Positions 4,305 through 35,287 of a stretch of 64,000 nucleotides of DNA are shown one piece after another. A program made the translations under genes and the position numbers. The notes beneath the pieces are model-generated. The model saw only the letters and a list, made by a program, of their open reading frames with translations. It searched no databases and was not told where the DNA came from. How positions within the stretch are numbered: position 1 is the first letter of the stretch; each line of letters begins with the position of its first letter. Source of the stretch: Methanocaldococcus sp. 16A (GTDB lineage: Archaea; AGJL01; Methanococci; Methanococcales; Methanocaldococcaceae); assembly GCA_049860595.1 (NCBI GenBank), contig CP187551.1; one strand, written 5' to 3'.

Positions 4305-4320
4305 ATTAATTTTTCTAATA
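4305..4320. promoter_or_regulatory. Candidate operator (ATTAG-N5-CTAAT family) upstream of the yedE-like genes
   Basis: ATTAATTTTTCTAATA is the exact reverse complement of 16732-16747. Weaker copies lie at 4332 and 4361. Confidence 0.55.
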
Positions 4321-4430
4321 ACCAAATATCCATTAGATTTTTTTACAAAAAATTTTTTATAATTAGAAATTTTAAATAAACCATAGCATCTTCTAAATAC
4401 CATATTAAAAAACCTAAAGATGGTGAGGAA

Positions 4431-4889
4431 ATGAGAATTTCCCCATTAACAGCAGGGTTGATAGGAGGTTTTACAGCAGCAATGTTGCAAGCATTGTTTA
4501 AAGTGTTTCCACCTCCAGCTTATGGTATCTGTATAGCATGTCACACAAGAGATTTAGTAAATTGGATTGTCAATCACTTATTTGGAACTTCATTAGGTTT
4601 AGCTCCTGTATCAAAAGTTTTTCCTGTTTTAACTGTTGTAGGTATCTTTATTGGGGCTTTAATAGCCGCATTTGTTCATAAAGAGTTTAAAATAAAACAA
4701 ACCCACAACCCAGCTATTGGTTTTATTTTAGGAATTTTGGTTATTAATTTTGCCCTATTAATGGGAGGTTGTCCTGTTAGAGAGACTTTAAGAACAGCTT
4801 ATGGAGATATTATAGCGTTGATTAGTTTAATAGCTATGTTTGCTGGGGTAGTTGTAGCTAGTGAGGTTTACTTAAAAAGAAACCTCTAA
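4431..4889 (+). CDS. YedE/YeeE-family sulfur/selenium compound transporter, N-terminal half
   Basis: Hydrophobic protein with GICIACH and GGCP motifs typical of YedE. Confidence 0.8.
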   Translation: MRISPLTAGLIGGFTAAMLQALFKVFPPPAYGICIACHTRDLVNWIVNHLFGTSLGLAPVSKVFPVLTVVGIFIGALIAAFVHKEFKIKQTHNPAIGFILGILVINFALLMGGCPVRETLRTAYGDIIALISLIAMFAGVVVASEVYLKRNL

Positions 4890-4908
4890 AAATGTTTAGG
4901 GTGGTTTT

Positions 4909-5382
4909 ATGGAATATCTTCACGTAATTGGAACATTTGTATTTGGAATAATTTTAGGTTATTTATTCCAGAGAGCAAGAATGTGTTTTGTTGGAGGAAT
5001 GAGAGATTTCTATTTAATAAAAGATACATGGTTAATCAAAGGTTTATTTGGGTTCTTTGCTGGAGCATTAATTGGATATATTATATTTAGTGCTGCTGGA
5101 TTAATTTCAGCATTTCCATGGTTTGTTGATAAAGGATTATCCCCAATACCAGGAGACCCATTGGGCGCAAGTGGAACTTTAATGGGGCATTTAATAGTGG
5201 CTATTATTGGTGGATTTGGAGTAGGATTTTTCTCAGTTATTCAAGGAGGTTGCCCATTAAGAAACTACGTTATGGCTGCTGAAGGGAATAAAACAGCTAT
5301 TGCCTACGTGTTTGGATTAGCCGTTGGAGCAGTTATATTCCATAAGTTTGTAGCTCCATTAGTAAAAGCAATATTAATTTAA
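4909..5382 (+). CDS. YedE/YeeE-family transporter, C-terminal half
   Basis: QRARMCFVGGMRD and GGCPLR...AEG motifs; hydrophobic. Confidence 0.8.
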   Translation: MEYLHVIGTFVFGIILGYLFQRARMCFVGGMRDFYLIKDTWLIKGLFGFFAGALIGYIIFSAAGLISAFPWFVDKGLSPIPGDPLGASGTLMGHLIVAIIGGFGVGFFSVIQGGCPLRNYVMAAEGNKTAIAYVFGLAVGAVIFHKFVAPLVKAILI

Positions 5383-5415
5383 AAATTTAAATCTCTTTTT
5401 TTCTTTTGTGAGAGT

Positions 5416-5886
5416 ATGAAAGGAAAAAAGATAGCTATTGTTTCTCACTGCATATTAAATCAAAATAGTGTTGTTAATGGTTTAGAGAGAGCTGAAGGGG
5501 CTTTTAATGAGGTTGTTGAAATTCTTTTAAAGAATAATTATGCTATAATCCAATTACCATGTCCAGAGTTGCTATATTTAGGAATTAATAGAGAAGGAAA
5601 AACAAAAGAGGAATATGACACAAAAGAATATAGAAAACTATGCAGAGAACTTTTAAAGCCGATAATTAAATATCTGCAAGAATATACAAAAGATGACTTC
5701 AAATTTATTTTAATTGGAATAGAAAACTCTCCAACATGTGATATTTTTAAAAATAGAGGAATCTTAATGGAAGAACTTTTAAAAGAGATTGAGATATTAG
5801 ACATTGATGTTGAGATAATTGCATATCCAAAAAATGAAGAAGATTATGAAGAATTTATAAAAAATTTAAAGAAGATGATAGAATGA
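5416..5886 (+). CDS. TudS-related (DUF523/CD3072-like) putative Fe-S desulfidase
   Basis: SHCILNQN, QLPCPE and SPTC cysteine motifs. Confidence 0.75.
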   Translation: MKGKKIAIVSHCILNQNSVVNGLERAEGAFNEVVEILLKNNYAIIQLPCPELLYLGINREGKTKEEYDTKEYRKLCRELLKPIIKYLQEYTKDDFKFILIGIENSPTCDIFKNRGILMEELLKEIEILDIDVEIIAYPKNEEDYEEFIKNLKKMIE

Positions 5887-6614
5887 TTTTGGGAATAGAT
5901 GTTGGCTCTACAACAACAAAAATGGTTTTAATAGAAGATGAGAGAATAGTTTGGTATAAAATAGAGGATATTGGAGTTGTTATTGAAGAAGATATTTTAT
6001 TAAAAATGGTTAAAGAAATTGAGCAGAAATATTCAATAGATAAAATTATAGCAACTGGATATGGAAGGCATAAGATTAGTTTTGCAGATAAAGTAGTTCC
6101 AGAAGTTATTGCTTTAGGAAAAGGAGCTAATTATTTCTTTAATGATGCGGATGGAGTTGTAGATATTGGAGGACAGGATACAAAGGTTTTAAAAATTAAT
6201 AAAGATGGAAAAGTTATTGATTTTATCCTATCAGATAAATGTGCCGCTGGAACTGGAAAATTCTTAGAAAAATCTTTAGATATTTTAAAAATTAATAAAA
6301 ATGAAGTAAATAAATATAAATCAGATAATGTTGCTAAAATATCATCAATGTGTGCAGTTTTTGCTGAAAGTGAAATAATAAGCTTACTGTCTAAAAAAAT
6401 TCCAAAAGAAGAGATTTTAATGGGAGTTTATGATAGTATAATAAATAGAGTTATTCCAATGATAAACAAGCTTAAAATACATAATATAGTATTTAGTGGT
6501 GGAGTCGCTAAAAATAAAGTTTTCGTTGATATGTTTGAAAAAAAGTTAAATAAAAAGCTTTTAATTCCAGAAGAACCGCAAATTGTTTGCTGCGTTGGAG
6601 CCATATTAGTGTAA
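5883..6614 (+). CDS. ATP-dependent [4Fe-4S] electron-transfer activase (HgdC/BadF; DCCP-reductase-like)
   Basis: GIDVGSTTTK, ATGYGR, DIGGQD, KCAAGTG and SSMCAVFAESE motifs; resembles MJ0004. Confidence 0.9.
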   Translation: MILGIDVGSTTTKMVLIEDERIVWYKIEDIGVVIEEDILLKMVKEIEQKYSIDKIIATGYGRHKISFADKVVPEVIALGKGANYFFNDADGVVDIGGQDTKVLKINKDGKVIDFILSDKCAAGTGKFLEKSLDILKINKNEVNKYKSDNVAKISSMCAVFAESEIISLLSKKIPKEEILMGVYDSIINRVIPMINKLKIHNIVFSGGVAKNKVFVDMFEKKLNKKLLIPEEPQIVCCVGAILV

Positions 6615-6625: not shown

Positions 6626-7765
6626 TTATTTTTCACTTAAGAATAACGGTGGCAAGCTATCATCAACACCTGGAACATAACCAAAGGTATCTCTAATCTT
6701 CAACTGCATTCTGTGGAATATATAAGCTAAAGGGATATCCATTGGGCAGACATCTTCGCATTGCCCACAATTTATACAGCTTTGAGATATATGGCTCAAT
6801 CTAATCCCCTGGAACATTAAAGGATTTGGCGGGATTTTTCCTTTTTCATCAATATAATCTTTCTCTAATCTACATTCAACACAGAAGCAGAGTGGGCAGT
6901 TGTCTCTACAACCATAACACTTTATACACCTATTCCAATATTTCTGCCACTCTTTAAGATTTGGATATTCATCTTCCAAATGTATTTTTTGGAATTTTTT
7001 AGCCAACTTTATCATGACATTCTCTATTTTCTCTCTAATTTGAATTGCCTTTTCTGAAGGTTCTTTAATTTTGATATAGCCTTCTTTTTCAGCATCCTCA
7101 ACTAATTTTTTTCCTTTTTCTGAACAGATTTCAACAAACGTCCAGCCCTTTTCAGCTCCCCAATTTCCACAAGCTAAATCAGCCATTCTTGGAACCATAA
7201 CTTCACATCTTTGGCAGTTCTTCCTTCTACCAAAACCTTTTTCTTCTAACTCATCTATTTTGATAGCTTTATGTTCTCCATTTTTTAATTCAATAATAAA
7301 CTTCCCCTTATCTATTTCTTCCTTAACAACATCTAATGGATTAACTTCATAAAATAGCTCAATCATTTTCATAGCAGTTATTGGACTTATTGTCCCTCCA
7401 CAATTCAAACCAATCATATAGATGTTATCTAAATTTACCTGGTTTAACTTTGCCAACTCTCTAATCGCCATCGCATCACATGGTTTAGTAGAGACAGCAA
7501 TTTTTTTATTACTCAAATATTTGCTAATTATCTTTCCAAAATTTGTTGGTGCACAGTGCAAAGAGCCAGCAGTTTCTATCAATTCATCAGAATTCGTTAT
7601 AAATGCTGGAATTCCATCATAAATATCTTCTCCTCTCTTTAAAGCTAAAACTCCATCAACAAGCTTGTTATCTAATAAATATTTAAATAGGGCTGTTACT
7701 GCCCCTCCACATTCTGCTCTCTTTAAAATTTCATTATCTGTAGCTTGGATTAATGCATATTTCAT
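6626..7765 (-). CDS. fdhB: F420-reactive formate dehydrogenase beta-type subunit (FdhB/ElpB-like)
   Basis: ECGGAVT, GSLHCAP, KPCD, GLNCGG, RKNCQRC and two CxxCxxCxxxCP motifs. Confidence 0.88.
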
Positions 7766-8880
7766 AATACCACCTTAGTTATTTCTTTTTGAATGTCTTC
7801 TAATGAATTGAACCCTAAATCAATTCCAAGCTTTTCAGCTAAGCTTTTTATTATAAGATAATCATCCATAGCTTCTCCAGGAGGGTTTACAGCTTTGTTT
7901 ATTTTTTGAATTCTTTTATCAGTGTTTGTAAAGGTTCCCTCTTTCTCAGCCCAACAAGTTGAGGGTAGAACTACATCAGCTAATTCAGCTGTTTCACTCA
8001 TTATAATATCTTGGACAACTAAAAATTCAGTATTTTTTAGTGCATCTTTATCGATTAAAGCTGGATTTTCCCCCATTATGTATAAGAACTTTGAGTTTTT
8101 CAATAACTCAAAATATTCATCTTTATTTAAAGGAGGAATGCCAATAAGTGTTGCCCCTACAGTATTGCAGTGCTTAGCAACTGGCAAAACTTTAGCAATT
8201 TTAGGCATTTTATCAACATCTATTGGTGCATTGATTATAATAATAGTGTTTTCATCAACATTACCTAAATCAATATCCTCATAGCTATCAACCTTTACGA
8301 ACTTGTCGGCATTTAATTTTAGGATATCTTTCTCCTCTATATTGAAAATTGTTACCTTAGCCCCTTTATCCTTTGCCCTAACAACCTTTCTTCCAATTAA
8401 TGCATGTTGCCCAAAAACATCACCAATAATTATGATGTTTTTTGCGTTCTCAATGTCATCAATTGTTGTAGAAATTTCAGCATAATTGGCTTTAGGAGAA
8501 TTGCAGATACAATGCCCAATTTTAGCTTTTAAATTATCAGCCAACTTTTTTAATGCATAGTTGTCTTCATTTGTACATTTTCCAGAGGCAATAAATGTTA
8601 TGTCATCAGCATCATAGCTCTTTAATTTCTCTGCAATAAAGCTTAAAGCTTCATCCCAACTGACTTCAACAAACTTTCCATTCTTTTTAATTAATGGCTT
8701 TTTTAATCTTTTCTCATGGTAGATTATTTTGTAGCTATTTTTTCCATTTAGACAGTTTTTTCCTTCACTTATTGGATGTCTCTTGTATGGATAAGTACCA
8801 ACAACTTTGTTATCTTTGACGATCAAATCAATTCCACACCCAACACTACAAGTTGGGCAAATTGTATGAACAACCTTCAT
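7762..8880 (-). CDS. Truncated FdhA-like Fe-S protein (ElpA-like)
   Basis: N-terminal CPTCSVGC...C cluster and [22 protein letters not shown] motifs. Only 372 aa, lacking the central region and C-terminal domain present in the 675-aa FdhA at 51010-53037. Confidence 0.8.
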
Positions 8881-8899
8881 GTTATCACCTTATTATTAT

Positions 8900-9274
8900 T
8901 CATGAGGCAACCTTTTGAGCTGAGATCTCAACAACTGGAATTGTCTTGATTTCAACATGCATTTCCTTTGTGAGATTTATCATGCCTACTAAAATTTGAA
9001 GCAATCTATCCAATATTGATTGTGAGATGTCCTTTGAAATACAGTCAATATTTTCATCGAACTCTACAACTCCCTCAACAATAAACGATATTGAAAGTTC
9101 ATCTATTTTTAAATTGTATACATAACCATATGAGTTGTCACTAATTTTCTTGTATTCAATGTTCCAATCCATATCTAACTCCAACCTCTGATTTTTTGGA
9201 TTTTCTTTTGGTCTTACTAATCTTAGCTTTTCTATGCTTATTTTCATATTCATTATAATCACCGTATTACTCAT
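8900..9274 (-). CDS. Hypothetical protein, first gene of the fdhA-like/fdhB unit
   Basis: 124-aa ORF with a GGAGGTGA RBS and its own TATA box (about 9300-9307); alternating beta-strand pattern. Confidence 0.7.
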   Translation of the reverse strand: MSNTVIIMNMKISIEKLRLVRPKENPKNQRLELDMDWNIEYKKISDNSYGYVYNLKIDELSISFIVEGVVEFDENIDCISKDISQSILDRLLQILVGMINLTKEMHVEIKTIPVVEISAQKVAS

Positions 9275-9403
9275 ACATTAATATCACCTCCCATTTTTGT
9301 ATATAAAATTTACTACTTAATTCAAATTATTATTACTAAAATAATACAAAATTTTAAAAAGTATTACTCAACTGACAAAAAATTATAATTGGGCATTATT
9401 AAT

Positions 9404-10711
9404 CTACAAAAACTCCTTAACTTTCTTAATGAGCATCTTTAATATCTCTCTATCTGGTAAAACTCCATCTGGAGGGTCTATAACCTTCTTTAACTGAATT
9501 GGAACTCCATCCATTCTATAGGCAGTTCCTTCGCATTCTACTCCTGCAATTGCTGGTGGGATAATGATGTTAGCCAACTCTGATGTAGGTGTGTTATGAG
9601 GGTCTATGCAAATTAATGGGATTTCTGCCATTCTTTCAACTGCTTTTTGTGGAAAGTGTGCTCCAGGGTCTGAGGCAATGTTGAGCATAGCATCTGCCTC
9701 TTTTCTAATTAATAAATCTGTTATACTCGTATCTCCTGGATTGAATCTCGGATAGCCTCTTGAAAAATCTACACATAATGGAAAACCAGTAACCCATGTA
9801 CATACTTGATTAAATCCATTTACGTTGTAGTGTCCTCTCATTGGCATTAGTTCAAATTTTGTATAAGCATTTAAATCAATGATTAATTGTATAGCATTAT
9901 CTATATTCCTATGCTTACCTCTTGATTGAGTAACTCCCATACCAAAGAATAAACATCCAAACTGAGCTTTTTTACAAATTTCCATTGCTTCATAGATTAA
10001 ATCTGCTGGAACTCCAGCGACTCTATCTACTTGCAATTCAAATCCTTTTAACACTGCTCTCATTGCACTAACTAATTCATAATCCTTATGCTGTTCAACT
10101 TGCAAGTGTATATCTGCTAATTTTGCAGTATCTGTCTCTCTTGGGTCTACAACAATAACTGTTCTATCTTCTCTTCCTCTTTCTCTGAAAAATCCTCTTG
10201 CAAATACTGAATATCTACTCATATGTCTTGGGTGGGCGTGCATTGGATTGCTACCCCAAAAGATAATTACATCAGCTCTATTTTTAACCTCTCCTAATGT
10301 ACAAACTGGGTATCCTACATCTTGCAATGCCCAAACACTTGGACCGTGGCAAACTTCTGCTGTATTACTAACAACTCCTCTAATCAATTCTGCCAATTCT
10401 ATACCATATACATGTGCATGGCATTCAGTAGCAGAGAATCCATAAATTACAGGTAAATTTGATTCAGCCAATATTCTTGCTGTCTCTTCAATTGCTGTGT
10501 CAATATCAACTTTTTTGAAGTTATCTTTCTTGTTTTCTCTCATTAATGGCTCTCTCCATCTAATTGCCCCTTCAAAATGCATGAACTTAGCATGTCCAAT
10601 TCTACAAGCATTTCTTGTTCCTATAATATGCCCATCATCATCCACTATAACTACAATATCATCACATAATGTTCCACAGAATGGACAGACAACATTTTTT
10701 ATCTCTCTCAT
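9404..10711 (-). CDS. fwdB: Formylmethanofuran dehydrogenase subunit B, cysteine isoform (FwcB-type)
   Basis: VCPFCGTLCDD, AEVCHGPS (Cys at the W/Mo-ligand position), KNRAD, HPRHMSRY and MRGHYNV motifs. Confidence 0.93.
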   Translation of the reverse strand: MREIKNVVCPFCGTLCDDIVVIVDDDGHIIGTRNACRIGHAKFMHFEGAIRWREPLMRENKKDNFKKVDIDTAIEETARILAESNLPVIYGFSATECHAHVYGIELAELIRGVVSNTAEVCHGPSVWALQDVGYPVCTLGEVKNRADVIIFWGSNPMHAHPRHMSRYSVFARGFFRERGREDRTVIVVDPRETDTAKLADIHLQVEQHKDYELVSAMRAVLKGFELQVDRVAGVPADLIYEAMEICKKAQFGCLFFGMGVTQSRGKHRNIDNAIQLIIDLNAYTKFELMPMRGHYNVNGFNQVCTWVTGFPLCVDFSRGYPRFNPGDTSITDLLIRKEADAMLNIASDPGAHFPQKAVERMAEIPLICIDPHNTPTSELANIIIPPAIAGVECEGTAYRMDGVPIQLKKVIDPPDGVLPDREILKMLIKKVKEFL

Positions 10712-10741
10712 CTTTATCACCCTTAAAAAAGATTTAAAAAT

Positions 10742-12706
10742 TTAAGCAGGGTCTTTGAAAGCTCCTTCAATTTGTTTATACAGTTGAATTGTTTTGAAGT
10801 GATTCTGCTCTAAAGCTCCACTTGGACATCCTGCAACGCAAGTTCCACATCCTTTGCATAACGCAGCAATAACCTCACAAACTACTCTGCCATCTTTCTC
10901 AACCAACCTTGGAGCTCCATAAGGGCATTGTTTTACACAAACTCCACAGCCCCCACAGATTTCTTCATTTACTGTTGCAACTATAGGTTCTACTTCAACC
11001 TCCCCCTTAGCTAATGGAATTGCTGCCCTTGCAGCTGCTGCAGAACCTTGTGCAACTGATGCTGGAATATCCTTTGGCCCTTGACAAGCTCCTGCTAAAT
11101 AAACTCCATCTGTTGCTGTATCAACTGGTCTCAATTTTGGGTGTGCCTCCATGAAGAAATTATCCGGAGTTCTTGAAATTCCTAATATTCTTTGGATTTC
11201 ATCTGCTGATTTTGTTGGAACCATTCCTACAGATAAAACAACCAAATCATACTCCTTCTCAATAATTTCTCCTAATAAAGTATCTTCTGCTCTAATAATG
11301 AGATTTTTAGTTTTTGGGTCCTCTAAGATTTGAGCAGGTCTTCCTCTTATGAAGTTAATGCCATATTGCTTTGCACTCCTTTCGTAAAACTCTTCATATC
11401 CTTTGCTAAATGCCCTAATATCCATATAGTAAATATCTATCTCAGTATCTGGAGATTTTTCTTTGATTAATTGAGAGTTTTTCATTGCATACATACAGCA
11501 GACATTGGAGCAGTATTTGTTTCCAACTTTTGCATCTCTTGAACCAACACATTGAATGAATGCAATTCTTTTTGGCTTTTTGCCATCACTTAACCTAATA
11601 ACCTTTCCTCCTGTTGGACCAGAAGCATTAATCATCCTTTCTAATTCAAGAGCTGTTATAACATTATCGTAAATTCCATATCCATACTCTTCCCTAACTG
11701 TTGGGTCAAATACATCATAACCAATAGCACAAATTATTGTACCTACTTCAACCTCAATGTACTCTGGTTTTTGATTAAAGTTTATAGCTTTAGGACCGCA
11801 AACTTTAGCACATAATCCACATTCTATACAGTGCTCTTTGTCAATTGTGTATTTTGATGGAACTGCCTGTGGAAATGGCTTGTAGATAGCTTTTCTCATC
11901 CCTAAGCCCATATCAAATTCATTCGGCACTTCTATTGGGCAAACTTCTGCACACTGTCCACAACCCGTGCATTTTGTCTCATCAATGTATCTTGGCTTTT
12001 TCATAATCGTAACTTTAAAATTCCCTATGTATCCTTGAACATCTACAACCTCTGAGTATGCATAAAGTTTTATGTTAGGATGTTTTGCAACATCAACCAT
12101 CTTTGGAGCTAAGATACAGATAGAGCAATCATTTGTTGGGAAAGTTTTATCTAGTTGAGCCATTCTACCTCCAACAGAAGGAGATTTCTCAACCAATATT
12201 GTTTCAAATCCCATATCTCCCAAATCCAATGCCGCTTGAATTCCTGCTACCCCTCCTCCAATAACCAATGCTCTCTTTGTAACTCCAACTTTAATAAATT
12301 CTAATGGCTCTAACAGCCTTGCTTTTGCAACAGCCATTCTAACTAAATCTTTTGCTTTTTCAGTAGCTTTCTCTTTTTCATGCATATGAACCCATGAACA
12401 ATGTTCCCTTATATTTGCAAACTCAAATAAAAATGGGTTGAGACCAGCTTCAGCAACACATCTTCTAAATGTTGGTTCGTGCAACCTTGGAGAGCAAGCT
12501 GCGACAACAACTCTGTTTAGATTGTATTCTTTAATGTCTCTTTTAATCATCTCTTGCCCAGGATCTGCACACATATACTTATAATCTCTCGCAACAACGA
12601 CATTTTTTAATGTCTTGGCAAATTCAGCAACTTCCTTGCAATCAACTACTCCTCCAATATTTACCCCACAATGGCAAACATAAACACCAATTCTTGGTTC
12701 TTCCAT
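10742..12706 (-). CDS. hdrA: Heterodisulfide reductase subunit A, cysteine isoform
   Basis: [27 protein letters not shown] motif, [16 protein letters not shown] and C-terminal ferredoxin motifs; no in-frame TGA. Confidence 0.96.
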
Positions 12707-12727
12707 ATTACCACCTTCAATATGGCA

Positions 12728-12743
12728 ATTAGATTTTCTAATA
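12728..12743. promoter_or_regulatory. Candidate operator upstream of hdrA
   Basis: ATTAGATTTTCTAATA is the exact reverse complement of 16999-17014 and lies 22 bp upstream of the hdrA ATG. Confidence 0.6.
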
Positions 12744-12790
12744 GGTTGAAGAATGAAATTATAATGATGAATCTTAATATATTAAAAAAT

Positions 12791-13963
12791 TTATTTCAAC
12801 TCTAAAACTTTCTTTTTTTCGGCTTCAGCGCAGGAGAGACAGAGGAGGCACATTACGCAATAACCTTTTAGAGGCAATTTGCCTCTTGATAATCTTAAGG
12901 TTTTCATTGGGCAGACTTCGACACATTTTCCGCATTTATCACACAAGTATGGGCTAAATTCAATTCTGTTGTATTCCTTACCATTATGCTCTATCTTACC
13001 CAACTTTAAAGCACCAGTTGGGCAAGCTACAGTACATGCTCCACAGACAATACACATTCTAACTTCTTTTTTCTTATCATCTACAACAATCGCTTCAGTT
13101 GGACAGACAGAAGCACATTTCTTCAATACATCGAAATCCTCTTCTACAATAACTAAACCTTCATCAGTTATCGGATGTGGAGAGGCTAATTTAACATCCA
13201 ATTCTAAAGCATCGACTGGACAGATATTTACACATAGCTTACAAGCAGGACATGATTTTGGTGGAACAACAATCATATTTTCCTCATCGACCTTAATCAT
13301 ATCTCCTGGACAGATTTCAACACACTTTAGACAGTAAATACATTTTTCTGCATCAACATCAAATTTCTTAACTTCTTTTCTCCTCTTCTTAGGTATCTTA
13401 CCTGCTACAAAGATGGCATTCCATGGACACGTTTGGGCACAAATACTGCAGTAAATACACTTGCTTTTATCAATAACTGCCTTGTTATCTTCTAAGGTTA
13501 TTGCATCTACAGGACATTCTGGAACACAGATTCCGCAGCCTACACAAGCGTCTGTAACCGCTATAGGTTCTTTTGGAGCTTTAACTTCTTTTTTAGGTTT
13601 GTCTATAATCCCTGGTAAAGAGATAATTTCAATTGGACAAACTTCTATACATTTTTGACATAAAACGCAATGTCCTTTTGAGTAAGGGAAATCATCATCA
13701 ACCTTCTTAATCCCTACAGGACATACCTCCGCACAGGCTCCACACTTCTCACACTTATGAGCTAAGTAATTAACTCTCTTCACAGTTTTTCCTTCAATCT
13801 CTATCTCTTCCTCTACTAACGCCCCTGTCGGGCATACATTGACACACTGCATGCATAATGTACACACATTAAAACTGTCTATATCTATCGCTTTTGTCGG
13901 ACATTCTGCCTGACATGCATAGCACACTAAACACGCTTCTCTCTGGATTGATACTCCACTCAT
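12791..13963 (-). CDS. vhcB: Polyferredoxin of the F420-non-reducing hydrogenase
   Basis: About 12 CxxCxxCxxxCP-type motifs, directly downstream of the hydrogenase large subunit. Confidence 0.9.
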
Positions 13964-13964
13964 A

Positions 13965-15383
13965 TTATCCCACTATTTTCTTTAATAATCTACTTCCTTG
14001 GAAGATTTCTAATGATAATTTGCTTTCACCGCCAATTATGTGGGTTGCACATGATAAGCATGGGTCGTAAGCTCTAATTACCATTTCCATATAGTTTAAA
14101 ACTTGGGAAGTAGCATCTTCAGGTCTTCCAATGTATTTTTCAGCAACTTTTCTAACACCAATATCCATAGCAGGGTTGTTTTGAACTGTCGCAACTATTA
14201 GGTTTGCATCAGTTATAATTCCATCTTCATTTGTCTTGAAGTGGTGAATTAAAGTGCCTCTTGGTGCTTCTACACATCCCACACCTTCTCCAACAATATC
14301 CTCTGGTTCTGCTCTAATGTCAGTATCCACAATCTTATCATTCTCTAAAAGCTCTTTTACTTTTTCAGAACTTGATAAAAGCTCTATTAACCTTGCATAG
14401 TGGAAGAGCATTGGATAATGGCATGGCTTTCCAAATTCTTTAATGAATTCTTCATAATACTTTTGTGCTAATGGTGTAGCCATTTTATCTGCAACATTTA
14501 GTCTTGATAAGGTATTTACTCTATATATTCCCTCTTCTGGGCCTTTATCTTTTAAGTATGGGAATTTTAAATAAGAGTAGGGTTTAACTCCCTCAGCTAT
14601 ATAATTTAGATACTCTGATGGATGAAATTCATACTCAACTTTTCCCTCTGCATTTACAACTCTCAATTTTCCATCGTAGAGTTCATGAACTCCATCATTC
14701 ACCATTCCCATATGGTAGGATTCAAAATATCCAATATCTAACAAATCATTTTCTTTTAAGTTTTCAATAAGTTTTTTTCCAATTTCAATGGATTTTTCAG
14801 AAAGTTCAATCGCTCTTTCTGAGAGTTTTAATAGTTCATCCCTCTCTTCTTCTTTTAACGGTTTTGACTGACCTCCAACAACTGCTGTAACTGGGTGGAT
14901 TGCCCTACCTCCAACAACTTTAACAATTGTCTGCCCTATTTTTCTCAACTCTATTGCATCTTTAACAATTTCCTTATTTTCCTTAGAAATTGTCAAGATG
15001 TTTCTTTTTAAAATATCATCTGTTGTTGGGAACATTAAATCAGGAGAAGCTAAGAAATAAAAGTGTAGAGCATGACTGTGGATTGTTGCCCCTTGATGCA
15101 TTAAATTTCTTAAAAGTTCAGCAGTTTCAGGAATTTTTACACCAAAAACTTCATCAACAGCCTTAGCACTTGCTAAATGGTGAGCTACTTGGCAAATTCC
15201 ACATATTCTTGGAGTGTAGATTGGTGCATCCTCTATATATCTCCCTTCCAAAAATTTTTCAAATCCCCTTACTTCAACAACATGAAAATGAACTTTATCT
15301 AAATTCCCATTCTCATCAAAGGATATTGTTATTTTTCCATGCCCTTCGACTCTTGTTACTGGTTCAACTGACAATTTTACCAT
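13965..15383 (-). CDS. vhcA: F420-non-reducing [NiFe] hydrogenase large subunit, cysteine isoform
   Basis: RVEGH, RGFE, RICGIC and C-terminal [12 protein letters not shown] in a single polypeptide, not split into VhuA+VhuU and with no Sec. Confidence 0.93.
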
Positions 15384-15396
15384 CTTACCACCTAAA

Positions 15397-16302: not shown

Positions 16303-16722
16303 CTATTCTTTTAATTTTTCATTTAATTTTAATGGACCGAGAGATTTTATTGTATTGTAGAATTCAATCATTGTTTGCTGGAATTTTTCTCCCTCTGATG
16401 CTGAAATCCATTCAAATCTAAATCTCTCTGGCTCAATTCCAAACTCTGGAAGTAATTCTTTTAAGAAAATAGATCTTCTTTGCCATTTGTAGTTTCCAGC
16501 ATCATAGTGGCAATCTCCTAAGTGGCAACCTCCAACAAAAACACCATCTGCCCCCTCTTTAAAAGCCTTTAAAACAAGAGATGGCTCAATTCTTCCAGAG
16601 CACATCACTCTAATTATCCTTATACTTGGAGGATACTGCATTCTACCAACTCCAGCAGTATCTGCCCCTCCATATGTGCACCAGTTACAACAAAAGCCTA
16701 TAATTTTTGGCTCCCACTCCAT
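16303..16722 (-). CDS. vhcD: MvhD-family [2Fe-2S] subunit, cysteine isoform
   Basis: [37 protein letters not shown] and WISASEG. Likely start is ATG at 16722 after a GGTGA RBS. Confidence 0.93.
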
Positions 16723-16731: not shown

Positions 16732-16747
16732 TATTAGAAAAATTAAT
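16732..16747. promoter_or_regulatory. Candidate operator abutting the vhcD RBS
   Basis: TATTAGAAAAATTAAT matches 16999-17014 at 14/16 and is an exact inverted match to 4305-4320. Confidence 0.55.
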
Positions 16748-17014: not shown

Positions 17015-17044
17015 GACTAAATAGATATTAGATTTGGTGATATA

Positions 17045-21093: not shown

Positions 21094-21167
21094 GTTTTTT
21101 GAATGGTATCCAATTTCTAAAATATTTAATTATAAAAGTCATATGATTGAGCTGTTGGAGGGATAAT

Positions 21168-24265: not shown

Positions 24266-24266
24266 A

Positions 24267-25979
24267 ATGGATGCTGTAACGATTGAAATTATAAGAAACT
24301 CTACAGAGTATATCGCTGAGGAGATGGGAATAGTTCTAAGAAATACAGCTTACTCTCCAAACATAAGGGACAGAATGGACTGTAGCTGTGCTGTTTTGTC
24401 TGCTAAAGGAGAGCTTGTTGCTCAAGCTGAGCACATTCCAGTCCATTTGGGTAGTATGGCTGTTGGAGCGAAAAACATAGTAGAATACATCGAAAAAGAA
24501 GGTATAGAGATTGAAGACGGCGATGTAATAGTCGTAAATGATCCATATATAGCTGGAACGCATCTAAACGACATAACTCTACTCAAGCCGATATTTTACA
24601 ACAGCAGAATGCTCGGTTTCGTTGCGAATAAAGCCCACCATGTCGATGTTGGTGGGAGAGTTCCAGGAAGCATAGGTATCAATGCAAAGGAGTTTGTTGA
24701 GGAAGGTATAGTTATTCCACCCACAAAGCTAGTCAAGAAGGGCAAGCTCGACAACGAGATCCTTAGGCTGATAGCTTCGAACGTCAGAGTTCCCAAGTGT
24801 ACTATTGGAGATCTAAAGGCTCAAATAGCCTCACTAAACATCGGAACGAAGAGGATTTTGGAGTTAGTAAAGAAATATGGCTATGAATGCGTTGTTGAAG
24901 CTTGGAATAGGAGCTTGGATTATACGGAGAACTATCTAAAGTCTAAGATAGATCAGATTCCAGATTGTGAAAGCGAAGCTGTAGATTACCTTGAGCTGGG
25001 TGATGAACTGATTAACATAAACGCTAAGATCGAAATAAAAGGCAACAGACTTAGAGTAGATTTTACGGGGACTCATGAGCAAATTGACGCTCCACTGAAT
25101 GCCGTTTACGGAGTAACAGTTGCATCAACATCCTTCGCATTGAAGGCTGTTTTAGATCCAGATCTACCTATGAACTACGGCTTTTTTAGAGCGGTTGATA
25201 TCTACGCTCCAGAAGAGACAATTGTAAATCCAGTAAAACCAGCTCCGGTATCGGCAGGTAATGTCGAAACTTCTCAGCGTATTGTAGATGTTCTTCTGAA
25301 AGCTTTATCGGAGATATTTCCAGATAGGGTGCCAGCCGCTTCGCATGGAAGTATGAACAACGTAGTTATCGGTAGTCAAACTTGGACTTTCTACGAAACG
25401 CTCGGAGGAGGTATGGGAGCTCGGCCTAGTAAAGATGGAGTAGATGGTGTACATACGAACATGACAAATACTATGAATACGCCAATAGAGGTTATTGAAA
25501 ACGAATATCCGATACTCGTGCTCGAATATTCTCTGCGAGATGATTCTGGAGGGGCTGGAAAGTTCAGAGGTGGGTTGGGCATAAAAAGGGTCTACAAGGT
25601 TCTATCTAACGCTGTTCTATCGATTATAGCTGAAAGAGTGAAACTCAGACCTTGGGGACTTAAGGGGGGCATGGACGGAGCTTCTGGTGAGCATTACGTG
25701 ATAAAAGCTAATGGAAAAAAGATTCAGCTTTCTGGTAAGGATACTGCTACCTTAAGTAAGGGAGATGTGGTTGTCATAAACACCCCTAGTGGAGGTGGCT
25801 ATGGCAAGCCAGAGGAGAGAGATCCATATTTAGTTTTAGAGGATGTTAAGGATGGTAAGATTTCATTGTCTTCCGCGTATGAGCAATATCTGGTTAAAAT
25901 TGTTGAGAAAAATGGAAAACTTATTGTCGATTTTGATGAAACTGAAAGGATGAGAAGATTTGGCTTGAAAGGTGATTAG
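24267..25979 (+). CDS. hyuB: Hydantoinase B/5-oxoprolinase subunit
   Basis: HIPVHLGS, NDPY..GTHLND, AHHVDVGG, SGGAGKFRGG and TPSGGGYG motifs. Confidence 0.92.
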   Translation: MDAVTIEIIRNSTEYIAEEMGIVLRNTAYSPNIRDRMDCSCAVLSAKGELVAQAEHIPVHLGSMAVGAKNIVEYIEKEGIEIEDGDVIVVNDPYIAGTHLNDITLLKPIFYNSRMLGFVANKAHHVDVGGRVPGSIGINAKEFVEEGIVIPPTKLVKKGKLDNEILRLIASNVRVPKCTIGDLKAQIASLNIGTKRILELVKKYGYECVVEAWNRSLDYTENYLKSKIDQIPDCESEAVDYLELGDELININAKIEIKGNRLRVDFTGTHEQIDAPLNAVYGVTVASTSFALKAVLDPDLPMNYGFFRAVDIYAPEETIVNPVKPAPVSAGNVETSQRIVDVLLKALSEIFPDRVPAASHGSMNNVVIGSQTWTFYETLGGGMGARPSKDGVDGVHTNMTNTMNTPIEVIENEYPILVLEYSLRDDSGGAGKFRGGLGIKRVYKVLSNAVLSIIAERVKLRPWGLKGGMDGASGEHYVIKANGKKIQLSGKDTATLSKGDVVVINTPSGGGYGKPEERDPYLVLEDVKDGKISLSSAYEQYLVKIVEKNGKLIVDFDETERMRRFGLKGD

Positions 25980-26419
25980 AGAGATTGATAACCTTATGAA
26001 ATAGATTTTGTAGTCTTCTACATCTTGATGATATAACATCTAATAGTACAACCACAAACATCGTCGCTCTTAATCTTTCCCAATATTGAATCAACTATTG
26101 CAACAAATCGTTATCTAAAATATCGAGAGGTTAGATAGTTGATTAGAGGCCTTCTATTTATTAGAATATCATTTGTGTTGCTAACTTATTCTTTATCACT
26201 GTTTTTTATGAAGTATTTAAGTTATATCTATTTCTATTTTTTTGATTTTAAGGCAGATATCGTTAATTCACACTCAGTAAAATATGGTGTAGTGTGATAA
26301 TATAAATATTACAAAAATTTTGTCACCTAAAATATTACTAAACAAATAGAAATTATTATATATTGATGACTATTATGCATATAATTATTTGTAAAAATTT
26401 TAAAAATGTGATATTTTGA

Positions 26420-26776
26420 ATATGAAAAGAATTAGAATTTTGTTATGGGGATTATGCGATTTGAGGCAGTGATTTTTACATAATGATAAATCATATCCTA
26501 CAAAATGCTGTAATACCAATAATTCCTCTTGTAACTCTAATGTATTGCTAGTTTGAGTTTTCTTGGTTGGGTGTTCAGCTACAACTCCTGAACTAGGGCT
26601 TATGTTGAAAGAAAATGACATACATGGATACAGCATCACGGTTGATGTTTTTTCTAGGTTTGTTGTTGTCAATTTGCATATTATTATTTAATACTCTTGG
26701 AAATGCACTAAGAGGCATTCTCGATCCAGGAAGGGAAAAATGTAATATAAAGATATTATCAAAAAAGGTGATATAA
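26420..26776 (+). pseudogene. Frameshifted 3' remnant of a DppC/NikC-type ABC permease
   Basis: Fragments across frames (GSDFYIMINHILQNAVIPIIPLVTL / SLSFLG / TTPELGLMLKE / TYMDTASRLMFFLG...FNTLGNALRGILDP) align with the intact permease at 30683-31546 (GASDLWILLKHIIPNAIPPIIVLATL / SLGFLG / PTPEWG / FNLLGDGLRDVLEP). The stop at 26774-26776 overlaps the next ATG (TAATG). Confidence 0.8.
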
Positions 26777-27408
26777 TGGATATTAAAGAATATATTAAAT
26801 CAAGATGGGATCATCATGCAAAAAACTACGATGATATACCAGCACACGGTATAAATTCTGAAAAAGATAAAAAAGTTATTAAAAATGCTTTACAGAACAT
26901 ACTTGGAAAAGGAAAAAAAGTTCTTGATGTTGGGTGTGGAACAGGTTTTTTATCATTAATCTTGGCTGAATTAGGACATGAAGTTATAGGTGTTGATATA
27001 TCGGAAGGGATGATAAGTAAAGCGAAAAAGAAAGCCAAAGAGAAGGGATATGATATTTTATTTATGATTGCAGATGCAGAAAATTTGCCTTTTGAAAATA
27101 ACTCTTTTGATGCAGTTGTGGAGAGACACATACTATGGACACTCCCAAATCCAGAAAAAGCCATTAGTGGATGGTCTAAACTTCTAAAAAATGGAGGTAA
27201 ATTAATATTAATCGAAAGTGAAAAAAAGGAAGAAAATATTGCCAGCCACCATTACAATGAAGAAATTGCAAAGAAACTCCCTTTTTCAAACGGTATAGAT
27301 TTGGAAAAATTCAAAGAGATTGCAAATAAATGCAATTTAACATTTAAAGTAGAAACTTTGGACTGCGAAAGAATAAATTTAATGATTATTTGTGAAAAAA
27401 TTTTCTAA
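26776..27408 (+). CDS. Class I SAM-dependent methyltransferase
   Basis: VLDVGCGTG, DAENLPF and RHILWTLPNP motifs. Confidence 0.9.
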   Translation: MDIKEYIKSRWDHHAKNYDDIPAHGINSEKDKKVIKNALQNILGKGKKVLDVGCGTGFLSLILAELGHEVIGVDISEGMISKAKKKAKEKGYDILFMIADAENLPFENNSFDAVVERHILWTLPNPEKAISGWSKLLKNGGKLILIESEKKEENIASHHYNEEIAKKLPFSNGIDLEKFKEIANKCNLTFKVETLDCERINLMIICEKIF

Positions 27409-27594: not shown

Positions 27595-27610
27595 TATTAA
27601 AAAATCTAAT
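27595..27610. promoter_or_regulatory. Candidate operator upstream of the cyclophilin-like gene
   Basis: TATTAAAAAATCTAAT matches 16999-17014 at 15/16. Confidence 0.4.
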
Positions 27611-27695: not shown

Positions 27696-28070
27696 ATGAA
27701 AGTTAAAATTAAAGTTAAGGATTTTGAAGTTGAAGCAGAGCTTTATGAAGATATTGCCCCAAAAACGGTAAGTGCAATAGCTAAAGCACTACCAATAAAA
27801 GGTGTTGTGAATAGATGGGGAGATGAGATTTATTTTGAAACTGATGTTGTTGTTAATGAAGAGGAGAATTCAAAGGAATATGTTGAGTTAGGAGACATTG
27901 CTTATTGGATTCCTGGAAGAGCTATTTGTATCTTCTTTGGAAAGACACCAATAAGCGATGACGACAAAATAAAACCTGCGAGTGCTGTAAATGTTATTGG
28001 GAAAGTTAAGGACTGGAAGAAGTTTAAAGATGTTTGGGATGGAGAGATAATTGAAATTGTTAAGGCATAA
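27696..28070 (+). CDS. Cyclophilin-like fold protein (TM1367/DUF369-like)
   Basis: RWGDEIYF, GDIAYW.PG.AICIFFGKTP and PASAVNVIG motifs. Confidence 0.85.
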   Translation: MKVKIKVKDFEVEAELYEDIAPKTVSAIAKALPIKGVVNRWGDEIYFETDVVVNEEENSKEYVELGDIAYWIPGRAICIFFGKTPISDDDKIKPASAVNVIGKVKDWKKFKDVWDGEIIEIVKA

Positions 28071-32471: not shown

Positions 32472-32527
32472 CTTACCACCAAAAAACTTTAAATTAAATT
32501 TAAAATTAAAAAATTAAAAGAGAAAAA

Positions 32528-34138
32528 TTATTTTTTAACTCCAACTTCAGCAAAGAATGGCTCTCCACTGATTGTGAAGAATTTGTCTGGGCTTGGAGCA
32601 TCTACCTTTGGACTCATTACTGCTGTCATAATATCATGGTAGAGTGGAACAACTCCCATCTCATCATACAACGCCTTGTAGAACTCAATTAAATCCTTCT
32701 TTCTAACTTCTGGATTAATATCTGCTGGATCTTCAAGGATTTTTTTGCATAAGCTACAGACCTTTTCACTTTCGTATGCATCCCATTTTCCTCCTGGGTA
32801 GAATCTCCAATACAATCTTAAGTAGAATCTTCTGTCAGTACCTCCAATGTAATATAACCTCATGTCATAATCTCCAGAATCTCTCTTCTGCTTGTAAGCT
32901 CCACTTTCTAAGATTTCAAGTTCTGGGTTAAATCCAGCTTTCTTAAGTTGTTCTTGAATGAGTTGGGCTACTAATATTTGGTCTCCTTGGCTCTTATCAA
33001 CTATGAATTTAACTTTCACGCCCTCTAAACCTTTCTTCTTTAATATTTCTCTAGCCTTCTCTGGGTTGTATTCATACTTAATGCCTGCTTCTTTCATTCC
33101 TGGAGCTTCTGGAACAAACATACCATTCCATGCAGGTCTAACTTGATTACCAAATATCTTAACAATTTCATCTCTGTTTATTGCTAAACTGACAGCTTTT
33201 CTAACCTCTGGGTCGTTAAATGGAGCTTTCTTGTAGTTGAAGGCAATAACCCATGTAATTGGCACATCATGCTTATAAACCTTGAAGCCATCTTTTTCTA
33301 ATAATGGGAGTTGGTTTCTTGGAGTGTATTCAGAACCTCCATGAACATAGTCAGAGATTGCATCAACTTCCCCACTTCTTAAAGCCATGACTCTTGTATC
33401 CTCATCTGGAATGATTTTAACAACAAATCTCTTGAATTTTGGTGTAATGTTATGTCTTTCATACCAGTATGGGTTTGGTTCATAGATTGCGTATTGGTCT
33501 TTTTTGTAATCTACAACCTTAAATGGTCCAGTTCCAATTGGCTTAACCAATGTTCCGTTAGGGTCTCCAACTGGATTAACTGATGTAGGTGCCATTATTC
33601 CAAGGTGATACTCTGCCATCTTAGCCAAGTTGAAGAATCCTGGTTTTTCAAAGTGTATAGCAACTGTATAGTTGTCTATAACATCACACCCCCTTGGAGC
33701 TAAGCTATGCTTTTTCACAATCAATCTATCCATTGTGAATTTTACAGCATAGGCATTGAATTCAAATCCATCAGAAAATTTAATTCCTTTTTTAAGGTGG
33801 AAGATTATTGTTTTACCTCCATCCTTAATTTCCCAGCTTTCTGCTAATGCTGGGACTATCTTATCATGTGCCATATCATATTCTACCAATCTCTCAAGGA
33901 CATGAGTTTTTGGGAAGAACCCTATTCCCCATTTACCTCCTGTAAGTCTATGGTCTTTTCCATAGCCTAAGATGAAGGTATCTTTGTATTCAACAGCCTT
34001 GGTCTCTGCAGGTTTGGTTTCAGTGGTTGTTGGTTTTGTTTCTTCAGTACTTACTTCAGTTTTTTGTGTACAGCCTGCTATAGCTACGCTTCCAAGTAGT
34101 AGGAGGGCTATAGTCAATATAGATATTACCTTTTTCAT
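32528..34138 (-). CDS. Family 5 ABC substrate-binding lipoprotein (peptide/nickel/metallophore)
   Basis: Signal peptide with IAGC lipobox, T/E/K linker, PALAESWE, FSDG, IGTGPF and VRKAVSLAINR motifs. Confidence 0.9.
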   Translation of the reverse strand: MKKVISILTIALLLLGSVAIAGCTQKTEVSTEETKPTTTETKPAETKAVEYKDTFILGYGKDHRLTGGKWGIGFFPKTHVLERLVEYDMAHDKIVPALAESWEIKDGGKTIIFHLKKGIKFSDGFEFNAYAVKFTMDRLIVKKHSLAPRGCDVIDNYTVAIHFEKPGFFNLAKMAEYHLGIMAPTSVNPVGDPNGTLVKPIGTGPFKVVDYKKDQYAIYEPNPYWYERHNITPKFKRFVVKIIPDEDTRVMALRSGEVDAISDYVHGGSEYTPRNQLPLLEKDGFKVYKHDVPITWVIAFNYKKAPFNDPEVRKAVSLAINRDEIVKIFGNQVRPAWNGMFVPEAPGMKEAGIKYEYNPEKAREILKKKGLEGVKVKFIVDKSQGDQILVAQLIQEQLKKAGFNPELEILESGAYKQKRDSGDYDMRLYYIGGTDRRFYLRLYWRFYPGGKWDAYESEKVCSLCKKILEDPADINPEVRKKDLIEFYKALYDEMGVVPLYHDIMTAVMSPKVDAPSPDKFFTISGEPFFAEVGVKK

Positions 34139-34368
34139 ATGCCCACCTCATACTTATGTGCTATTTTATATTATTTAATCATAGCATTTTTAAAAAACAT
34201 TACTTTAGGTATATAAAATTTTCTATTTTATATTATTAAATATGAATAATTAAAATTTTTATATTACACAAATTACAAAAATGAAAATAAAGAAAAACGA
34301 TTCAGAACAAAGAGTATTTATAATTACGATGCCAAACTGTTAAATAAATTACACAAAAGGTTGATATC

Positions 34369-35187
34369 ATGATTATAGCGGGAACTATGCCAATAAAAGG
34401 TTTAGAATTAATAGAAGGAAAACCAGAGTTAAAAGGAAATAAAATAATAATTAACAACAAAGAGTTTCCGATATCTATGGGGACTGGTGCTTTGATAGGA
34501 GCAGTTTTAAAAACGTTGGAATATTTTGACGATGATGATGTTAGAGTAATAACTGCTGGGGATATTGGAGAAGGAGATGGAAGTTTAAAGATTTATGATG
34601 CGTTAAAAGATGTTGATGATGATTTATTAGTTATTCATTACATAAAACCAAAAATATCAAAAATTAAGGAGATTGATTTCTCTCCAAAGATTATTGCAGA
34701 TGCTGGAGGAATGTATGTAGCAAAAGCGGCAAACATAGGGGATAAGTTTTATCTGTTTCTACCAGATGTTGGTGAATTGGCATTTTTGGCAGATGAGAAA
34801 GCTACACATCCTGCCTATGTTAGAGGCTTTATATCTGAGATTGACGATAAAGAAGTTCCTAAATTAATAGAAAGAGCTTACAAATTGAAAATGCCTAAGT
34901 ATATGGTTGTTAAAGGAGAAACTGATTATGTTGTCAATGAAGGAAAAATAATTGACACAATAAAAGAACCAAAAATAGAGGCAATGGAGTGTATAGGAGG
35001 TACAGGAGACACTTTAACAGGAATAATATCCTCCTTAATAAGTGTTGGATTTAAGACAGAAGATGCTATGAGCTTAGGATGTAAAATAAATAGAAAACTT
35101 GGAGAAGTTGTCAATGCTAAGCCAGATACACAGATTGTGGAAATAATTAACGCCATTCCTAAGGTTTTAGAAGAATATATAAAATAA
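34369..35187 (+). CDS. Ribokinase/YjeF-C-like kinase (uncharacterised)
   Basis: ADAGGMY, PDVGELAFLADE.A.HP and IGGTGDTLTG anion-hole motif. Confidence 0.75.
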   Translation: MIIAGTMPIKGLELIEGKPELKGNKIIINNKEFPISMGTGALIGAVLKTLEYFDDDDVRVITAGDIGEGDGSLKIYDALKDVDDDLLVIHYIKPKISKIKEIDFSPKIIADAGGMYVAKAANIGDKFYLFLPDVGELAFLADEKATHPAYVRGFISEIDDKEVPKLIERAYKLKMPKYMVVKGETDYVVNEGKIIDTIKEPKIEAMECIGGTGDTLTGIISSLISVGFKTEDAMSLGCKINRKLGEVVNAKPDTQIVEIINAIPKVLEEYIK

Positions 35188-35271
35188 AAATCTTTTTTAT
35201 TAAAAAAAGGTTATTAATAAAAGTAATAGCAAATTATATTTTTTTTAATATCATTAACAATCTATGAACCT

Positions 35272-35287
35272 TATTAGAAAAAATAAT
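35272..35287. promoter_or_regulatory. Candidate operator upstream of the Hmd paralogue
   Basis: TATTAGAAAAAATAAT matches 16732-16747 at 15/16. Confidence 0.4.

Follow-up and report, generated by a model that had tools for sequence, protein, structure and literature searches.

A conserved palindrome in Methanocaldococcus sp. 16A is the probable operator of a selenium regulon of the Methanococcales, with HrsM as its likely regulator

We analysed a stretch of 64,000 nucleotides from the archaeon Methanocaldococcus sp. 16A (contig CP187551.1), referred to below as the window, which corresponds to C1:224001-288000 of the source genome (1.62 Mb, 30% G+C). The window contains intergenic copies of a palindrome, TATTAG-N5-CTAATA, that is enriched in the genome, lies upstream of genes for cysteine (Cys) isoforms of methanogenesis enzymes and of genes without an assigned role, and is conserved in related genomes. 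In our view, this palindrome is probably the operator of a selenium regulon that extends throughout the Methanococcales, and the orthologue of the LysR-type regulator HrsM is the protein most likely to bind it. The original prediction, made from the sequence of the window alone, had proposed an HrsM-like operator joining Cys-isoform genes to uncharacterised ones. The core of that proposal is supported by a site in the hrsM promoter, by conservation in four genera and by a match to a known selenium response; binding by HrsM is predicted from these data.

Results

The palindrome in the window and in the genome

Sequence inspection confirmed that all ten positions named in the original prediction, eight main copies and two weaker ones, carry the letters given for them, and that 12728-12743 and 16999-17014, as well as 4305-4320 and 16732-16747, are exact reverse complements of each other. 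When placed in the same orientation, the eight main copies read TATTAG-AAAAT-CTAAT with zero to two changes. Compared with the consensus TATTAGAAAATCTAAT, the copy at 27595 has one mismatch and those at 16883, 18226 and 35272 have two each, in agreement with the 14 to 15 matching positions counted earlier.

The pattern by which the motif had originally been named, ATTAG-N5-CTAAT, proved too narrow: it fits only two sites in the window (0.22 expected; 1 of 100 shuffles also had two), and the core TTAG-N5-CTAA is not enriched there (3 seen, 2.46 expected). The 16-mer with up to two mismatches, on the other hand, recovers exactly the eight main copies in the window, compared with 0.61 expected; none of 100 shuffles reached eight, and their maximum was three. 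This 16-mer has 30 matches with at most two mismatches in the whole genome. Its intergenic DNA (162,296 bp, 24% G+C), taken as what a crude gene caller left, contains 3 exact copies, 6 with at most one mismatch and 16 with at most two; Markov models of order 1, 3 and 5 gave means of 0.01, 0.18-0.31 and 3.8-4.0, and maxima of 1, 3 and 10, respectively. The motif is more frequent than in the shuffled or modelled DNA, both in the window and in the genome. The copy at 16732 was assigned to coding DNA because the open reading frame (ORF) of vhcD had been over-extended.

A symmetric position weight matrix (PWM) was built from 14 accepted sites of the source genome. Its consensus is (C)TATTAG-A-WWW-T-CTAATA(G), a palindrome of 17-19 bp with the arms ATTAG and CTAAT. 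T at position -6 and A at position +6 are present in all 28 half-site readings, so that the fit to the LysR box T-N11-A claimed for the motif is borne out, including dyad symmetry of the core. Passages in PMC11495319 describe the box of LysR-type transcriptional regulators (LTTRs) as T-N11-A with imperfect dyad symmetry.

Some further matches are probably unrelated to the motif. A third exact TTAGAAAATCTAA core in the window, at 56006-56018 inside ORF 55728-56753 (minus strand), was taken as chance because it has more than two mismatches to the 16-mer. Strong PWM matches within secD and archaellin genes were put down to chance or coding similarity. The one in secD (C1:1214313, 69 bp after the start; CTATCAGTATTTCTAATAG; PWM 19.1) is 134 bp from a divergent SemiSWEET gene and may be chance.

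Targets elsewhere in the genome

The best site of the source genome according to the PWM (21.9) lies upstream of the orthologue of hrsM, the selenium-type LysR gene, with its centre 34 bp before the start codon. An exact copy is located 12 bp before the ribosome-binding site (RBS) of a modA-like substrate-binding gene, which is followed by NapH-like and permease genes. Other copies are present upstream of a gene pair of the tusA/yedF-like and dsrE/tusD-like types, of selD, whose ORF is cut by its selenocysteine (Sec) codon, of the Sec isoform of hdrA, which is split by an in-frame TGA, and of a gene encoding a CBS-domain protein. Only one new intergenic site with a PWM score of at least 14 was detected. 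It precedes a 149-aa gene resembling a fragment of a P-type ATPase, and it is conserved in three relatives (G005, G013 and G028; genomes are labelled with G-numbers, G000 being the source, and extracted loci with L-numbers). Three additional genomic matches, in the S13 operon region, at mdh and as an A/T-only copy near an Eha/Ehb-like gene, look like chance. The hmd and HesB-like genes of the source genome itself have no site. An IS6-family transposase gene (L006:2676-3314; C1:1224175-1224813) adjoins the operator-bearing upstream region of selD.

Conservation across the Methanococcales

The comparison set consisted of 31 genomes of the order, representing four genera and two families, of which 30 are relatives of the source genome. 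The motif is also found there: a copy with at most one mismatch is present in 29 of the 31 genomes, and the 30 relatives together contain 119 such copies, compared with 34 for the reversed pattern of the same composition. The surroundings of 101 of these sites in relatives were inspected. More than half (58) precede, by at most 400 bp, orthologues of just 14 target genes of the source genome, which has about 1,650 genes; ten are inside called ORFs, at least three of them owing to over-extended starts of the gene for the double-cubane-cluster-type protein (DCCP), and the remaining 33 are in other intergenic places. At this stringency, DCCP has a site in 15 genomes, the tusA/yedF-like gene and the TIM-barrel gene in 8 each, the modA-like gene and hrsM in 5 each, hdrA(Cys) and selD in 4 each, yedE in 3 and vhcD in 2. 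Recurring extra targets in relatives are mtd and its neighbour (four genomes each), hmd (two) and the gap between the SepSecS and rhomboid genes (two).

Alignment of the DCCP upstream regions of 20 genomes, in which the start in row G022 is mis-set, revealed that only the block TATTA.AAAATCTAATA and the RBS are kept at 85% or more. Likewise, G at -3 and C at +3 of the motif are retained inside otherwise diverged promoters. A HesB/IscA-like gene found in four genomes of genus g4 has an exact copy 34 bp upstream and contains a TGA in frame, which is presumably a Sec codon (L026:1178-1474, minus strand, and the same place in L027-L029; PF01521 28.9 bits with TGA read as Sec). The homologue in the source genome (C1:1145780-1146064) also has a TGA; the best upstream score there is 6.7. 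The HesB-like selenoprotein gene accounts for a site that had suggested psmA, on the other strand, as a target, and a PgtC-like binding protein was rejected as a target in the sister family, since only weak sites (8.7-11.9) were found. In G022, a genome of genus g4 in the sister family, about 10 of the 15 matches with at most two mismatches precede genes of the same families, namely tusA-like (two), hrsM, yedE, DCCP, hmd, the CBS gene, Sec-type hdrA (two) and the HesB-like gene.

HrsM as the candidate regulator

Each of the 31 genomes encodes one protein scoring above the cut-off of NF040786 ('selenium metabolism-associated LysR family transcriptional regulator'), and the regulator is also found in 30 of 30 genomes in the 'phylum' set. 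In the source genome, the HrsM orthologue is the only protein in which both LysR domains exceed their cut-offs (HTH_1 71.1 bits, LysR_substrate 137.8 bits). In the 200 bp before hrsM, 23 of the 30 genomes considered have a site scoring at least 13.9, and 25 of 30 have one scoring at least 12.6; this site lies directly after a TATA box. The operator predicts autoregulation of hrsM. To our knowledge, HrsM is the only selenium-responsive regulator known in archaea.

According to the main text of PMC11097638, HrsM of Methanococcus represses Cys-isoform genes by binding the intergenic region between frc and vhc. In four genomes of the sister family (G025, G029, G030 and G034), the comparable divergent region between vhcD and an FrhA-like gene contains sites scoring 12.2-14.5 and 16.6-18.8. 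The same text reports that selenium depletion of M. maripaludis raises expression of vhcDGAB-hdrA-fwdB, hmd, hcgA and hcgG, as well as that of yedE (+5.3 log2), a periplasmic molybdate-binding protein (+5.8) with a nearby permease, and tusA/D (+4.5), and that it lowers expression of Sec-type hdrAU/vhu and mtd. The gene families just named all carry the motif in at least one of our genomes. Passages in PMC5322559 cite a decrease in selenoprotein gene expression upon loss of hrsM. Selenium as the signal in the source organism is predicted by orthology to M. maripaludis JJ only. The original prediction had left sulfur as an alternative signal; nothing found in this analysis points to sulfur rather than selenium.

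Discussion

Proposed mechanism

We propose that an HrsM dimer would contact the two half-sites ATTAG and CTAAT, which together form the T-N11-A box. The position of the site relative to the TATA box suggests three modes of action. In class A, comprising hrsM, the DCCP gene, the CBS gene and probably hdrA(Cys), the site is located a few bases after the TATA box (in the hrsM promoter, TTTATATA is 23 bp before the motif centre), and the bound dimer would cover the transcription start. In class B, comprising the second vhcD site, the TIM-barrel operon and the ATPase-fragment-like gene, the site ends where the TFB-recognition element (BRE) and TATA box begin, with TTTATATA 15-17 bp after the motif centre, and the dimer would compete with transcription factor B (TFB) and the TATA-binding protein (TBP). 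In both classes, the bound regulator would keep the transcription machinery from assembling; the genes would be repressed while selenium is sufficient and released on shortage, as are vhc and frc in Methanococcus. At a third group of promoters, namely those of the Sec-type hdrA/vhu operon, selD, yedE and the tusA-like gene, the distance from the site to the TATA box downstream of it is 40-60 bp or more. Here HrsM may have another mode of action, perhaps activation, since expression of the Sec-type operon decreases when M. maripaludis is depleted of selenium. Whether HrsM represses or activates a given promoter is likewise a prediction from site position.

A tentative extension, which we think possible but rather doubtful, is that HrsM acts as both repressor and activator of a selenium-scavenging programme common to all Methanococcales, in which the uncharacterised members would capture selenium from poor sources and reduce it for SelD in times of shortage. 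These members would be DCCP with its ATP-driven activase, split YedE, the TusA/DsrE-like pair, the modA-like gene with the NapH-like and permease genes, and the TIM-barrel/PP-loop-like/phosphomutase-like/DUF3343/cyclophilin-like operon. If this were true, it would be the first physiological role for a double-cubane cluster protein.

Alternative explanations

Several observations weigh against HrsM as the binder of a selenium operator. Among 1200 random intergenic 16-mers, 5.9% had at least three exact copies and 10% had at least six copies with at most one mismatch; taken together, random intergenic 16-mers recur as often as the motif in 6-19% of cases. Recurrence alone is therefore not decisive, and it is gene context and conservation that carry the case. 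The random 16-mers that recur are mostly A/T runs and CRISPR (clustered regularly interspaced short palindromic repeats) repeats; a CRISPR-type repeat with ATCAGACCGATTCGGTATGGAAA-like sequence, which occurs in well over 100 copies genome-wide, dominates this control. The PWM ranks in the source genome are circular because the matrix was trained on sites of that genome, and independent support therefore comes from mismatch counts and from the other genomes. A good site is missing upstream of hrsM in 5 of 30 genomes (scores 3.8-11.0; one start codon is mis-set), and several Methanothermococcus records lack one as well. The vhc-frc type regions of G022, G026 and G027 contain clusters of weak sites only (9.8-11.3), and G022 shows no total excess at two or fewer mismatches (15 matches, compared with 16 for the reversed control). 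The classical LTTR model leads one to expect a conserved second site of lower symmetry, two to three helical turns from the main one, and none was found at a fixed distance; according to passages in PMC11495319, such activation sites are often unrecognisable by sequence, and some LTTRs use single sites. Finally, the source genome encodes a second HTH_1 protein (C1:1252175-1253023; L217:1176-2024) of 282 aa, which scores 43-47 bits but lacks a LysR substrate domain. The gene, which begins 4 bp downstream of dapF, encodes the only further candidate that has a LysR-type DNA-binding domain.

The palindrome could indeed be the operator of this conserved regulon and yet be bound by another transcription factor, with hrsM as one of its targets. 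This 282-aa protein, with its HTH_1 domain only, is one candidate; a sensor of sulfur, molybdenum/tungsten, nickel or H2 would be another. Several targets are molybdo- or tungsto-enzymes or resemble molybdenum transporters (fwdB, fdhA-like, modA-like), and hmd and mtd respond to H2 and Ni. We regard this alternative as unlikely, though not negligible, because it is the hrsM promoter that carries the site with the highest score and the widest conservation, as expected for LTTR autoregulation, whereas no site scoring 9.4 or more is present near the second HTH_1 gene. In addition, selD, the Sec/Cys isoform pairs, the HesB-like selenoprotein gene, yedE and DUF3343 all indicate selenium, and the targets match the selenium-depletion transcriptome of M. 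maripaludis as given in the main text of PMC11097638.

Two further alternatives do without a DNA-binding regulator. The copies might reflect chance similarity, or a generic AT-rich sequence of the TATA/BRE type that no specific factor recognises. The low G+C content of the intergenic DNA, the lack of enrichment of the short core, the frequent recurrence of random 16-mers and the A-rich, unconserved copy at 35272 would all fit this view. It is already contradicted, however, by the reversed-control counts, by the orthology of the genes downstream and by the DCCP alignment, and it also conflicts with the wide margin over the Markov and shuffle nulls and with the retention of G and C at -3 and +3; we give it hardly any credence. 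We also think it very improbable that the palindrome is an RNA element, a small hairpin in the 5' untranslated region that acts on translation or stability. Such a role is suggested by the ability of the inverted repeat to pair and by the location of several copies 10-30 nt before a start codon, beside the RBS (vhcD, modA-like, CBS, hdrA). The predicted hairpins, however, reach no more than -1.9 to -2.7 kcal/mol at 37 °C, and members of the genus Methanocaldococcus grow at about 80 °C or above. Furthermore, the motif is found in either orientation with respect to the gene, and the copies located upstream of the TATA box (second vhcD site, TIM-barrel operon, ATPase-fragment-like gene) would not be transcribed. 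A restriction-modification site was dropped as an explanation too, since the short core is neither over- nor under-represented.

Comparison with known systems

The regulon proposed here for HrsM shares several features with the HrsM system of Methanococcus voltae and M. maripaludis: all 31 genomes encode an orthologue, the targets include the same Cys-isoform genes, the vhc-frc type region of the sister family contains the motif, and the selenium-depletion response of M. maripaludis, in its published main text, covers the same families. It differs in that the genus is another one and vhc is divergent from the DCCP gene instead of frc. In addition, the target set extends far beyond the eight isoform genes that were originally connected with selenium, as it includes yedE with the activase gene, DCCP, the TIM-barrel/PP-loop-like/phosphomutase-like/DUF3343 operon, the modA-like, tusA-like and CBS genes, selD, Sec-type hdrA and hrsM itself. 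Similar to bacterial LTTR sites, such as the ATAC-N7-GTAT box of BenM, the motif has a T-N11-A core with dyad symmetry, is present in the promoter of the regulator gene and occurs as one high-symmetry site per promoter. Unlike those, it is embedded in archaeal TATA/BRE promoters, and no conserved lower-symmetry activation sites were found beside the main one; in such promoters, repression would therefore act on recruitment of TBP, TFB and RNA polymerase. A palindromic operator over or after the TATA box is also used by NrpR, a repressor of M. maripaludis. Both systems involve a short dyad near the TATA box or transcription start and, presumably, steric repression, but the regulator family, the sequence and the signal differ.

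The same gene families are also associated in bacteria: passages in PMC5322559 (Lin et al. 2015) associate a 2-hydroxyglutaryl-CoA dehydratase subunit with LysR_Se, and an activase with YedE, YedF and DUF3343. As presented in those passages, the bacterial link consists of gene neighbourhood and STRING scores, whereas here it is a common cis-element at dispersed loci.

HrsM itself, its effect on vhc and frc, and the response of M. maripaludis to selenium depletion have been described before. We found no published operator consensus or regulon defined by a cis-element in the open papers searched, which did not include the primary HrsM papers, and the words 'motif', 'palindrom' and 'binding site' do not occur in the main text of PMC11097638; the element of M. 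voltae may already have been mapped in the primary literature. What appears to be new is the predicted HrsM operator and regulon, with its extension to Methanocaldococcus and to uncharacterised genes. The accessible literature says little about how HrsM recognises its targets, and an operator consensus would narrow the selenium-responsive transcripts of Methanococcus to a short, testable list of direct targets and carry the regulon to the hyperthermophilic Methanocaldococcus. It would also tie proteins of unassigned role to selenium supply, namely DCCP and its activase, the PP-loop-like, TIM-barrel and CBS proteins and the phosphomutase-like metalloenzyme, all of which are open to ordinary genetics in M. 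maripaludis.

Operator copies and genes in the window

The features are listed in Table 1. Most gene names of the original prediction were confirmed: split yedE, activase, hdrA, vhcDGAB, fwdB, HGD-D, TIM barrel, iPGM-like, cyclophilin-like and Hmd paralogue. The TudS-like name is weak, and the PP-loop name comes from language-model leads.

Table 1. Operator copies and genes considered in this study (positions in the window, except where C1 is given; operator copies have no strand)
Feature	Position	Strand	Remarks
Operator copy	4305-4320	.	centre 120 bp upstream of split yedE; PWM 14.6
'Weaker copy'	4332-4347	.	half-site only, not accepted; PWM 7.2
yedE halves	4431-4889, 4909-5382	+	Sulf_transp 35.2 and 44.7 bits
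DUF523/TudS-like gene	5416-5886	+	PF04463 only 20.1 bits, below cut-off 34.7
BcrAD/BadFG-type activase	5883-6614	+	BcrAD_BadFG 148.4 bits
Cys-isoform gene string	6626-16722	-	ORFs without in-frame stop; Pfam matches
fdhB-like	6626-7765	-	
fdhA-like	7762-8880	-	
Unassigned gene	8900-9274	-	within Cys-isoform string
fwdB-like	9404-10720	-	
hdrA(Cys)	10742-12706	-	
Operator copy	12728-12743	.	vhcB-hdrA(Cys) gap; exact consensus; centre 30 bp upstream of hdrA start; PWM 21.6
vhcB	12791-13963	-	
vhcD	16303-16722	-	followed by vhcG and vhcA within Cys-isoform string
Operator copy	16732-16747	.	abuts vhcD RBS (GGTGA); centre 19 bp from start codon; PWM 15.5
Operator copy (vhcD site 2)	16883-16898	.	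vhcD-DCCP divergent region; PWM 14.2
Operator copy	16999-17014	.	exact consensus; centre 39 bp upstream of DCCP gene; PWM 18.2
'Weaker copy'	17027-17042	.	overlaps DCCP RBS GGTGAT, not accepted; PWM 6.3
DCCP (HGD-D family)	17045-18163	+	PF06050 408 bits; PDB 6eno_A E 3.3e-104
Operator copy	18226-18241	.	centre 57 bp upstream of TIM-barrel gene; PWM 12.9
Operator-headed operon	18289-21728	+	four genes; Pfam-based except 276-aa protein
TIM barrel	18289-18936	+	Pfam
276-aa protein with PP-loop-like leads	18969-19799	+	language-model leads to QueC/ThiI clusters only
iPGM-like metalloenzyme	19807-21093	+	Pfam
DUF3343 Se/S-carrier-like protein	21147-21728	+	last gene of TIM-barrel operon; Pfam
Operator copy	27595-27610	.	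one mismatch; centre 94 bp upstream of cyclophilin-like gene; PWM 18.1
Cyclophilin-like gene	27696-28070		Pfam
Doubtful copy	35272-35287	.	upstream of Hmd paralogue (35355-36380); two mismatches; A-rich; PWM 13.5
hrsM orthologue	C1:1090903-1091793		selenium-type LysR gene; NF040786 273.8 bits (cut-off 250); site upstream

The yedE halves and the TudS-like and activase genes (4431-6614) probably form one transcription unit downstream of the 4305 site, because they are tightly spaced. Orthologues of yedE have sites in G013, G026 and G030, and also in G022 and G002. The two halves are in swapped order in the window: the first aligns with positions 177-310 and the second with positions 1-115 of the Sulf_transp profile.

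Sec-type counterparts of the Cys isoforms are encoded elsewhere, as hdrA split by TGA in the source genome (L007) and as vhuD-like matches with two TGA codons in relatives. The operator copy in the vhcB-hdrA(Cys) gap comes after a T-run and a TATA-like stretch, and a site upstream of hdrA(Cys) is kept in G001, G011, G014 and G027. Equivalents of the copy next to vhcD are located 18-28 bp before vhcD in G001, G025, G029 and G030. The second vhcD site is just upstream of a TTTATATA box that points to vhcD and begins 17 bp from the motif centre, and relatives of this copy are present in G016 and G011. In some relatives (L010, L014, L015 and L068), an orthologue of the fdhA-like gene takes the place of vhcD divergent from the DCCP gene. 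The fdhA-like product of the window has 372 aa, which is short for a formate dehydrogenase alpha subunit.

The copy at 16999 lies directly downstream of a TATA-like AAATATATAC. The PDB entry matched by the DCCP gene product, 6eno, is the double-cubane cluster protein. At the TIM-barrel operon, 15 bp separate the centre of the 18226 copy from the start of the TTTATATA box that follows. The 276-aa protein of this operon has no match in PDB or NCBIfam.

The original prediction had also described weaker copies starting 27 bp further on at two loci. Both are present in the sequence, but the arrangement is neither general nor conserved: a half-site at +27 was found around 5 of 110 strong sites, no second PWM match recurs at any fixed spacing of 12-60 bp around them, and the 17027 copy is kept in close relatives only, being absent from G002, G003, G012 and G028. 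A second site at fixed spacing was consequently dropped.

The Hmd paralogue, which had been counted as a member of the regulon, was excluded as a conserved target: none of its 26 homologues in relatives has an upstream site scoring 9 or more, and the best score, in the closest relative, is 8.0. In the sister family, the cluster of the Hmd paralogue is located 2-6 kb from hrsM; in the source genome, it is far from hrsM. A 350-aa protein without a family match is encoded at 37310-38362 of the window. Its gene in the sister family is divergent from hrsM, with which it has a common operator region (L042, L094, L096, L101 and L112).

The cyclophilin-like gene has a site of its own only in the source genome. 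Five relatives have the gene; in four of them it comes immediately after the DUF3343 gene, without a site of its own, and is therefore part of the DUF3343 operon there, which lends it indirect support as a member of the regulon. In the source genome, the two genes are separated by hydantoinase A and B and methyltransferase genes (22220-27408). This region looks like an insertion in the source genome, because the flanking genes are adjacent in those four relatives.

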